Source: Shigella phage SF1-1. Taken from it: a stretch of 64,000 nt of DNA. A program made the translations under genes and the position numbers. The stretch is from the sequence record PQ571307; one strand, written 5' to 3'. Shown here piece by piece: positions 43,102 to 45,226 of this stretch (within the stretch, counting starts at the first letter, position 1; every line of letters starts with the position of its first letter). Below the pieces are notes generated by a model. The model had not been told where the DNA came from and did not search any database. It worked only from the letters and a program-made list of their open reading frames with translations.

Positions 43102-43664
43102 TGGGTTGTTTTAGCTTTTTGTGCAAAGAATCGGGCAAAGCTGCCCTTTCTACTTCTTTCGACGGATCACCTTGTTATCTCTTTCTTTTGAAGGACGGTG
43201 TTGTTATTGAAGAGATGTATGGCAACTATGATAGTTATGGTTGTGTTTTCTCTGGAAAAGAGGATGAAAACGGCGTTCGTGAACGGTTCGAATGGGCTAT
43301 GGATTGGGGTAAGGTTTGTGATTTGATGCATTCCTCAAATCCAAGGGACGGTATCGCTATGGTGCTGGAAGAGTACTTTACAGGTGAAATCCCTACAGAA
43401 CAATCTGACGGAGATCCTAACCAAGGTTGGGGTGATGGTGAAGAAGATCCAGATTGTTTTTTCAGCACAGAAAAGAATAAGTTTAAACGTGTTGACAACC
43501 CTTATCACAAAGTGCATAATACTCTCATTGAAACAGAAGATGACAAGATGGAAATTGAAGAAGATGATACTCTTGTAACACTTCCTATAAGTGAGTTACA
43601 AAAGATCACTAAGGAAGCTTACGACTTGGGCTTCAAAATTGGTAGAGGAGGTATGCGTGTTTAG
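43101..43664 (+). CDS. hypothetical protein
   Basis: 187 aa ORF. Confidence 0.55.
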   Translation: MGCFSFLCKESGKAALSTSFDGSPCYLFLLKDGVVIEEMYGNYDSYGCVFSGKEDENGVRERFEWAMDWGKVCDLMHSSNPRDGIAMVLEEYFTGEIPTEQSDGDPNQGWGDGEEDPDCFFSTEKNKFKRVDNPYHKVHNTLIETEDDKMEIEEDDTLVTLPISELQKITKEAYDLGFKIGRGGMRV

Positions 43665-43935
43665 ATTCAATATTCAAGAAGAAAAAAGTCAGGATTTACC
43701 TATTGCTTTCGAAGATCTTGACGTAGGGGCCACATTCATGTATTATGATGCCTATGAAGACGCAGGGTTGGATACCTACCGTAACTTGGTGTTCATTAAA
43801 AATTCCACAAACAGTGCGATTTGTATTAATGGATCACTAGCACAACGAGGCTATACTCATTGCATCCCACCAGATACAAATATGGTGGAAGTAGATTTAG
43901 AAGTTACCAATATTACACTTAAGAAGGAGAAATAA
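43657..43935 (+). CDS. hypothetical protein, paralog pair D (flanks vWA gene)
   Basis: GTG start after GAGGAGG RBS; DLDVGATFMYYDAYEDAGLD...L.V..T.ITLKK shared with 44957-45226. Confidence 0.5.
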   Translation: MFRFNIQEEKSQDLPIAFEDLDVGATFMYYDAYEDAGLDTYRNLVFIKNSTNSAICINGSLAQRGYTHCIPPDTNMVEVDLEVTNITLKKEK

Positions 43936-43936
43936 T

Positions 43937-44731
43937 ATGTCCGAGAAAATCAGCCTGAAAAAACGTCAAGAAAACCTTGCTTTCTCTCTGAAAAAGAATA
44001 AGAACCTGAATGAAGGTAAAATTGTTCTTCGTGTAGCATGTGCTCTAGATATTTCTGGTAGTATGCATGGTCTATATTCTAGTGGGGTAGTGAGTGATTT
44101 TGTAGGTAAACTACTTCCTTTTGGTATGCTGTTCGACGATAATCAACAAATTGATATGTGGGCCTTCAATACGAGTTCCCAAGAGCTTACTCCAGCAACA
44201 GCAGATGTTTACGATGACTATGTTGGTAAATGTATGCGTAATGTTCGTATCGGAGGTGGAACAAATTACGCCCCTGTAATGGCGGATATCTACGATGAGT
44301 ATTTTGGCACTGTTACTAAATATATTACCACTAAACAAGTGGTACAAGAGGAGGCTCCAAAGAAAGGCTTCTTTAATCGTCTGCTTGGTAAAACTGAAAC
44401 AGTGTCTGTAGAGCGTGAAAAAGTTGTAGCTGTATCTGAACCAGGTGCTGACGTTACCCCTGGTGTTGTATTCTTCCAGACTGATGGTGAGAATGGTGAT
44501 CCTAGTGCTGTTCGTCGTCTTATCGAAGAGAATAAGAATAAACCTATTTATTGGTTCATGGTTGGCGTTGGTAATGAGAAGTTTGGCTTCCTGAAAGAAC
44601 TGGCAAATGCTTATGATAATGTTGGTTTTATTGGCATTAAAGATTTAGACTTGACAGATTCAGAGCTTTATGACAAACTCTTATCTGAAGAGTTCGGAGA
44701 GTGGGTTGTTAAAGTAGGTGCTAAAAAATGA
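43937..44731 (+). CDS. TerY/TerF-like von Willebrand factor A domain protein
   Basis: N-terminal ISLKK TerD-like start, MIDAS motif DISGSM, GGGTNYAPVM. Confidence 0.7.
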   Translation: MSEKISLKKRQENLAFSLKKNKNLNEGKIVLRVACALDISGSMHGLYSSGVVSDFVGKLLPFGMLFDDNQQIDMWAFNTSSQELTPATADVYDDYVGKCMRNVRIGGGTNYAPVMADIYDEYFGTVTKYITTKQVVQEEAPKKGFFNRLLGKTETVSVEREKVVAVSEPGADVTPGVVFFQTDGENGDPSAVRRLIEENKNKPIYWFMVGVGNEKFGFLKELANAYDNVGFIGIKDLDLTDSELYDKLLSEEFGEWVVKVGAKK

Positions 44732-44976
44732 TCGACGAGCTTGCCTCTCAAGTCATAGAAAATTATTGGCGCGAGAGAGAAGCTTTCATTATGCGCAGTC
44801 TCAAAGAGTATTTCATTGGGACTGTGCGAATGGAAGATATTGTAAGTAGAGTAGAGATTCATGTATGGCCCGATTATGAAGAATGGGTTGACAAAGAAAA
44901 TGAAAATGCTATAATTCTTCGTATATACAAACCGGAGATAACATTAGGAGGAAGAAGTGTTAAACTTCGAAATTGA
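44728..44976 (+). CDS. hypothetical protein
   Basis: 82 aa ORF. Confidence 0.45.
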   Translation: MIDELASQVIENYWREREAFIMRSLKEYFIGTVRMEDIVSRVEIHVWPDYEEWVDKENENAIILRIYKPEITLGGRSVKLRN

Positions 44977-45226
44977 TGAGCAAAAAGTAAATAAACGATG
45001 CCTTACCATTAAAGATTTGGATGTAGGAGATACTTTCGTCTATGAAACTGCATTTGACGAAAATGGTTTAGACCTTAGTGAAGTTATTGTTTATTTAAAA
45101 GTAGATGATGGGGAGAATGATTATTCTGCTGTAGAACTAAACCATCATGCACAATTAGTATCAATCCAAAACACATCTAAGCTTTTGGAAGTAGAATTGA
45201 CTGTAACTGGTATTACACTTAAATAA
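44957..45226 (+). CDS. hypothetical protein, paralog pair D
   Basis: GTG start; DLDVGDTFVYETAFDENGLD...L.VTGITLK. Confidence 0.5.
   Translation: MLNFEIDEQKVNKRCLTIKDLDVGDTFVYETAFDENGLDLSEVIVYLKVDDGENDYSAVELNHHAQLVSIQNTSKLLEVELTVTGITLK

Follow-up and report, generated by a model that had tools for sequence, protein, structure and literature searches.

Do the two small genes beside the vWA and TerD genes of a phage Ter module belong to this module by function, or do they merely share its neighborhood? The question is raised by a DNA stretch of 64,000 nucleotides from Shigella phage SF1-1 (sequence record PQ571307), the whole of which is called the window here. In this stretch one small gene, small1, lies upstream of the gene for a vWA protein and a second, small2, lies downstream of it. 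Ter systems occur widely, on bacterial genomes and plasmids as well as in phages. An earlier note on this DNA had taken the small genes for dedicated partner subunits of a vWA/TerD complex.

The window belongs to a Phapecoctavirus, that is, a phAPEC8-like coliphage, with a full Ter (tellurite-resistance-like) module (Table 1). Many Phapecoctavirus genomes carry the region with about 99% identity; they are those of phAPEC8-like myophages of E. coli in the subfamily Stephanstirmvirinae and measure about 150 kb. The elements by which we recognized the Ter system are these: a TerD-domain protein, TerC together with TelA, and a PRTase together with a HAD-like hydrolase, the HAD match being weak. 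Six genes are closely packed on the plus strand, namely the 187-aa ORF, small1, vWA, the 82-aa ORF, small2 and TerD. Phage-borne Ter systems of such composition, likewise with PRTase_3, a HAD-like enzyme, TerC, TelA, a TerF-type vWA protein and TerD, have been described, and a role in competition with superinfecting phages was proposed for them (Iyer et al., 2021; PMC7824862), and a phage-borne Ter system was also described for phiKp34 (PMC8386662). Unlike the window, the published descriptions that we found (PMC7824862, PMC8386662) name no small beta-barrel component. The anti-phage defense HMMs of PADLOC gave no match for small1, small2, the 82-aa protein, vWA, TerD, the 187-aa protein, TelA or TerC.

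Table 1. Positions of the Ter module genes, their small neighbors and the promoter-like sites in the window.
Feature	Position	Strand	Match or remark
HAD-like hydrolase	35936-36613	+	weak Pfam match, E=0.0014, under the Pfam cut-off
PRTase_3	36606-37433	+	PF15610, E=2.2e-41
Macro domain	37381-37920	+	adjoins the PRTase_3/HAD genes
TerC membrane protein	38236-39210	+	PF03741, E=3e-40
SprT-like	40836-41426	+	
TelA	41423-42535	+	PF05816, E=3.2e-33
187-aa ORF, conserved, 5' of small1	43101-43664	+	phrog_14928; equals phi92 gp175
Near-consensus sigma-70 promoter-like site	43492-43520	+	TTGACA-17-CATAAT, 11/12; inside the 187-aa ORF
small1, 92 aa, copy upstream of vWA	43657-43935	+	PHROG 11278; pI 4.4
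TerF-type vWA protein, 264 aa	43937-44731	+	PF10138, E=1.6e-37, 130.1 bits vs 29.4 cut-off
82-aa conserved gene	44728-44976	+	phrog_22387; ATGA overlap with the vWA stop
Perfect sigma-70 consensus promoter-like site	44888-44915	+	TTGACA-16-TGnTATAAT; inside the 82-aa gene
small2, 89 aa, copy downstream of vWA	44957-45226	+	PHROG 11278; pI 4.3
TerD-domain protein, 200 aa	45242-45844	+	PF02342, E=3.2e-28

The identity of the vWA protein has to be settled before its neighbors are discussed. TerF of the terZABCDEF operon combines a TerD domain with a C-terminal vWA domain, as is also stated in the name and description of Pfam PF10138. The same vWA subfamily is paired with a TerD domain in the window; here, however, the two are separate genes, with one or two genes for predicted small barrels between or around them, and Phapecoctavirus adds the 82-aa gene with its internal promoter-like site. 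Previously the protein had been called TerY-like. It does share with TerY a tie to Ter systems, but its top Pfam match is vWA-TerF-like (PF10138) and it has no TerY_C match, so that this name has to be given up. The TerY-P triad reportedly consists of a vWA protein, a kinase and a phosphatase, whereas no kinase or phosphatase gene is adjacent to the vWA gene of the window, whose neighbors are small ORFs, TelA and TerD. At residue 38 the protein has DISGS, which is the DxSxS part of the MIDAS motif, and this part is intact in all 10 lineages compared (as DISSS in Klebsiella phage 05F01).

Both small1 and small2 are real protein-coding genes and ancient paralogs. Their products align over the full length with 34% identity (BLASTP, E=3e-14), both contain the DLDVG.TF ... 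GLD motif, and the HMM of phrog_11278 matches small1 at residues 1-92 of 92 (E=4.2e-51) and small2 at 1-89 of 92 (E=4.2e-44); this PHROG entry carries no functional annotation. Each gene begins with GTG 5 nt past an AGGAGG sequence, before the preceding ORF has ended: the overlap is 8 nt for small1 (187-aa ORF, TAG stop at 43662-43664) and 20 nt for small2 (82-aa ORF). The start of TerD follows 15 nt beyond the end of small2. In all these respects, namely paralogy, the shared motif, GTG starts that overlap an upstream stop and a second paralog just before terD, the earlier note was borne out. The GTG starts are supported by the relatives, whose starts align at the same position: the orthologs of phiWec181, 05F01 and metagenomic loci have ATG there, and M1 and F4 are invariant. 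The GenBank annotation gives the same coordinates and starts for both genes, as hypothetical proteins, and a six-frame HMM scan of the window detected no family copies beyond these two. That the two ORFs arose by chance or through faulty annotation, and are not genes, can be dismissed: they are short, start with GTG and find no match in curated domain libraries, but their length and core residues are kept across lineages down to about 22% identity, and the significant paralogy, the existence of a PHROG family, an AGGAG-type ribosome-binding site with 5-nt spacing at each start, dN/dS values below 1 and confident structure models speak against it, so that the comparative data exclude it.

The picture of two paralogs that bracket the vWA gene is correct insofar as they lie on either side of it, but the 82-aa gene separates vWA from small2. 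The stop that overlaps the start of small2 belongs to the 82-aa ORF and not to vWA. This gene had been overlooked in the earlier note. Its product is 59-60% identical to the versions in phiWec181 and in a metagenomic relative, and it occurs only where small2 is present. We considered the 82-aa ORF as a third, diverged paralog and rejected this (hhalign probability 0.3%). A larger duplicated unit, with the 187-aa ORF plus small1 corresponding to the 82-aa ORF plus small2, is likewise unsupported (187-aa versus 82-aa, E=0.058).

The proteins of the family are all acidic, with pI 4.3-5.5. Conserved positions belong mostly to the hydrophobic core, the remainder being G24, the G37-L38-D39 motif and N58; core residues are kept down to 22-30% identity, and the Asp of the GLD motif, D39, hardly varies within the close set. 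The AlphaFold2 models of small1 (pLDDT 83.6) and small2 (pLDDT 82.8) have the same strand order with one short helix and form a beta-barrel of five to six strands, and the small1 model agrees with the independent BFVD model of small2 from phAPEC8 at TM 0.78-0.80. The nearest PDB folds are SH3-like adaptor or regulatory barrels: L2, the C-terminal domain of DtxR/IdeR, FeoA, KOW and Tudor. The models thus show acidic small beta-barrels, and their likeness to SH3 is of low confidence. Among the nearest known comparisons are small stand-alone SH3-like barrel partners, represented by FeoA and the C-terminal SH3-like domain of DtxR/IdeR. By HMM, small1 and small2 are not members of the FeoA, KOW, Tudor or SH3 families of Pfam. 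Pfam as a whole returned no family for them at E<=0.1 save a sub-threshold DUF5006, NCBIfam gave no informative match, and a profile search of PDB sequences with the family gave nothing below E=0.17. A reading of DLDVG as a calcium-binding loop of the DxDxG type was rejected, because only L21 and G24 of this stretch are conserved family-wide.

Given the KOW-, L2- and Tudor-like barrels among the nearest folds, it could be argued that the small proteins are nucleic-acid-binding regulators of vWA and TerD transcription or translation. Such a role is very unlikely, because the small proteins are acidic.

Each of the two small genes is preceded by a promoter-like site. The site inside the 82-aa gene lies 42 nt upstream of the small2 start and is the sole 12/12 match in the 64-kb window, where 0.09 would be expected by chance; both of its hexamers and the TG are kept in phiWec181 and in the metagenomic locus L019 despite diverged flanks. 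The near-consensus site inside the 187-aa ORF precedes the start of small1 by 137 nt, and the block around it is nearly invariant between the window and phi92, with 2 substitutions, neither of them in a hexamer. In the window, only 11 sites agree with the consensus at 11 or all 12 positions. The spacer between vWA and TerD in phi92 has a promoter-like site, too. Judging from these sites, small1 with vWA and small2 with TerD may be separately promoted early units.

How far does the family reach? A profile search among 5.8 billion proteins found 22 clusters, and an exhaustive HMM search among 1.84 billion representatives found 20 matches. The matches are stand-alone proteins of 87-93 aa, except that three are short fragments of 54-56 aa and one, a repeat protein of 1191 aa, is spurious. 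Among the matches of both database searches there was no fusion to vWA or TerD and no match from an evident bacterial chromosome; wherever contig information exists, the contigs are phage or phage-like. Single-protein scans of IMG/VR yielded no contig beyond those already found, and in the GenBank phage collection the family is present in 126 records compared with 209 for the TerF-type vWA protein. The family is apparently narrow and confined to phages.

Within this range, a family member adjoins vWA and/or TerD in 9 of 10 lineages, with small proteins that are 23-67% identical to those of the window. Each informative locus has a small gene next to vWA and/or TerD, namely phi92, phiWec181, 05F01, L005, L006, L007, L009-L011, L015/L019, L017 and L018, and in the positive lineages small genes and vWA/TerD overlap or are at most 23 nt apart. 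The side of the small gene relative to vWA (upstream or downstream) and the copy number (one or two) vary among lineages. The order small1 - vWA - 80-82-aa gene - small2 - TerD is found in Phapecoctavirus, the phiWec group and the metagenomic loci L015/L019; small - vWA - TerD in phi92 (gp174-gp173-gp172) and Klebsiella phage 05F01; vWA - small - TerD in L005, L007, L017 and L018; and vWA - small - small - TerD in L009-L011. The conserved two-copy mini-architecture that had been proposed is therefore real in Phapecoctavirus, the phiWec group and one metagenomic lineage, and does not extend to the phi92-like phages and 05F01, which are single-copy. These have the upstream copy only, without small2 and the 82-aa gene, and small2 was likely lost together with the 82-aa gene there.

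The fifth arrangement is vWA - TerD with no family member, and it is found in the Klebsiella phages KP2025 and KP13-26. Both belong to Stephanstirmvirinae and keep vWA-TerD with a vWA protein 66% identical to that of the window; KP13-26 additionally retains TelA, SprT and TerC. No family member was detected when the complete genome of KP13-26 was scanned by HMM in six frames (best E 0.07-0.7), and in KP2025 there was none up to 3 kb from vWA and no tblastn match in the record. Nor did six-frame HMM scans give a member near vWA in representatives of five further clades of phages with Ter genes, which infect Caulobacter, Rhizobium, Pseudomonas, Acinetobacter and Bacillus. TelA-vWA-TerC/DUF475-TerD is the gene order in the first three (Pseudomonas being represented by Otagovirus phages), and the Acinetobacter and Bacillus phages have other Ter arrangements. 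Because it is absent from KP13-26, KP2025 and these five clades, the small family has to be regarded as an optional accessory. Further signs that it is dispensable are the lack of small2 and the 82-aa gene in the phi92-like phages and 05F01 and a frameshift of small1 in the EF1-1 record. Absence from relatives that keep vWA-TerD is the observation that had been named in advance as speaking against a partnership, and KP13-26 and KP2025 provide it in part.

The sequences themselves indicate an old duplication, because in genomes with both copies the within-genome paralogs (34-37% identical) are far more diverged than the vWA orthologs (74-83%). In a neighbor-joining tree an 'upstream', small1-type clade (70% bootstrap) is set apart both from the small2 clade of Phapecoctavirus (50%) and from the downstream copies that distant lineages have; the resolution of this tree is poor. 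Identity to the window ranges over 23-67% for the small proteins, 46-83% for vWA and 44-91% for TerD. Compared with WPEC6, dN/dS is 0.45 for small1, 0.26 for small2, 0.06 for vWA and 0.02 for TerD, ratios that are based on few substitutions. The small proteins thus evolve faster than the products of the neighboring genes.

One could argue that the small genes encode early phage proteins with a task of their own, such as host takeover or anti-defense, and that their adjacency to vWA and TerD is inherited synteny with no shared function. All positive loci share a wider synteny, in which TelA...vWA...TerD is followed by a Hydrolase_2 endolysin, glycosyltransferases and primase/helicase. The positive loci therefore represent one broad phage lineage, which would consist of Stephanstirmvirinae and a few related uncultivated phages, and this weakens the argument from adjacency, which may be partly inherited and not selected. 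Independence is further favored by the loss of the family from KP13-26 and KP2025, which keep vWA-TerD, by its absence from the other inspected Ter-bearing phage clades, by the fast evolution seen in dN/dS and low identity, which is typical of conflict or accessory proteins, and by the promoter-like site that each copy has of its own. It is also favored by weakly similar small uncharacterized proteins from unrelated phages in BFVD and by a weak match of the family to phrog_7832. However, in no genome or contig found was the family seen away from vWA/TerD. It stays beside vWA even where its side or copy number has changed, whereas the rest of the stretch from TelA to vWA holds different genes in different lineages, and this persistence argues for a functional linkage beyond inherited synteny. 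Additionally, the start-stop overlaps of 4-8 nt between the small gene and vWA in L005, L007 and L018 suggest co-translation. We consider full independence of the small proteins the main rival reading, though less likely than not.

The explanation that we prefer is that the family is a lineage-specific, optional accessory of phage Ter modules, whose most plausible function is that of a small protein-binding adaptor or regulator of vWA, TerD or both. In our judgement the chances of this explanation are about even. The idea of dedicated partners of vWA/TerD survives in it as the specific and tight linkage in 9 lineages, and has to be relaxed because the partnership is not obligate (KP13-26, KP2025). 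An obligate subunit of a vWA/TerD complex is not compatible with a family that is missing where vWA-TerD is kept. As accessories, the small proteins would bind TerD, the vWA protein with its MIDAS, or both, and so serve as protein-protein adaptors or regulators. Phapecoctavirus would express one copy together with vWA and the other together with TerD, each copy having a strong early promoter of the sigma-70 type to itself, and the nearly invariant Asp of the GLD motif could be a ligand for the metal of the vWA MIDAS. Speculatively, the acidity of the small proteins and their near-invariant Asp would be well suited to binding through the MIDAS. The most specific form of this model, in which the small barrels cap or ligate the vWA MIDAS via the GLD Asp and thereby gate or nucleate a sub-membrane assembly of vWA and TerD (and TelA), with the copies specialized since the ancient duplication, small1 coupled to vWA and small2 to TerD under their own early promoters, is improbable as a whole. 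If true, it would offer the first handle on the physical assembly of a Ter module.

Much of this locus is already known: over 100 published phage genomes contain it, PHROG lists the family without annotation, and Ter modules have been recognized in phages. A published description of the small family, of its duplication or of its linkage to vWA/TerD was not found in the literature searched. A small, soluble, lineage-specific protein that tracks vWA and TerD is a possible bait for pull-down or co-structure work on their assembly, and Phapecoctavirus and KP13-26 offer a natural comparison with and without the family. The practical impact is modest unless an interaction is shown, because the family is narrow and dispensable.

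A minor feature concerns the junction between small1 and vWA, where the vWA start lies 1 nt beyond the small1 stop. The codons of the C-terminal KKEK of small1 contain the Shine-Dalgarno sequence of vWA (AAGGAG), and it is at this Shine-Dalgarno sequence, within the last codons, that members of the small1 clade have an additional K-E-K.

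A match to the extended sigma-70 promoter consensus lies inside the coding sequence of the 82-aa gene that precedes small2, the second of the two paralogous small genes (Table). It is the sole 12/12 sigma-70 match in the window, where 0.09 would be expected by chance, and it is kept in phage phiWec181 and in the metagenomic locus L019, even though its flanks have diverged. The block around the second site, in the 187-aa ORF upstream of small1, is near-invariant between the window and phi92, and the vWA-TerD spacer of phi92 also holds a promoter-like TTGACT-17-TAAAAT. Among the window sites scoring at least 11/12, 10 of the 11 match the local GC-skew polarity.

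Table. Coordinates of promoter-like sites and neighboring genes
Feature	Sequence	Position	Strand	Remark
Ter module members	window	35936-42535	+	HAD-like (weak match), PRTase_3, Macro domain, TerC, SprT-like, TelA
Promoter-like site	window	43492-43520	+	11/12; within 187-aa ORF
Promoter-like site, TTGACA-16-TGnTATAAT	window	44888-44915	+	perfect match
Promoter-like sites	phi92 (L002)	about 5254-5282 and 3990-4040	-	
Adjacent 315-aa and 314-aa genes	window	48412-49359 and 49367-50311	+	common KSNLKILEAGAKG motif
Extra gene after TerD, gp171	phi92 (L002)	2728-3330	-	
Extra gene after TerD	KP13-26 (L024)	4556-5182		

The small1 protein (43657-43935) also gives a weak hit (E=0.0018) to phrog_7832, another PHROG whose members are small, and has weak BFVD structural matches to uncharacterized proteins of 70-90 aa from unrelated phages, e.g. 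Erwinia phage TropicalSun. These matches hint that small beta-barrel proteins of phages form a wider superfamily.

In Escherichia phage EF1-1 (PQ571289; 6592-6934 of locus L001) the small1 ortholog is broken by a frameshift into two pieces, both of which match the HMM, and is annotated as a 65-aa CDS; either this reflects an error in sequencing or the gene is a natural pseudogene. Two product names in GenBank are questionable: the small2 ortholog of EF1-1 (7959-8228) is called 'RNA ligase' without a supporting note, and the vWA gene of vB_Ec-G1 (938-1732 of locus L029) is called 'RNA-binding protein', yet it matches vWA-TerF-like. In Klebsiella phages KP2025 and KP13-26 (loci L021 and L024), which have no member of the small family, the position occupied by small1 in E. 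coli phages holds an unrelated 53-aa ORF (2843-3004), which overlaps the vWA start (ATGA).

In the small/vWA region of the window, ~99% identity to E. coli Phapecoctavirus is shown by phage records that carry Campylobacter, Acinetobacter or Klebsiella (ZCKP1) labels, as well as by 'Dompiswa phage'. Such host labels may misstate the true host.

Besides vWA and TerD, the window phage carries a near-complete Ter system, and the Macro and SprT-like proteins are located within this module. Downstream of TerD, an additional gene of 200-208 aa precedes the endolysin in phi92 and in the Klebsiella phages; its phi92 version, gp171, has no Pfam match. The window does not have this gene, and its Hydrolase_2 endolysin directly follows TerD. 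Further downstream, the 315-aa and 314-aa genes look like tandem paralogs by their common motif. They belong to a run of four glycosyltransferase genes, and their EF1-1 orthologs are both annotated as phrog_7162 glycosyltransferases.
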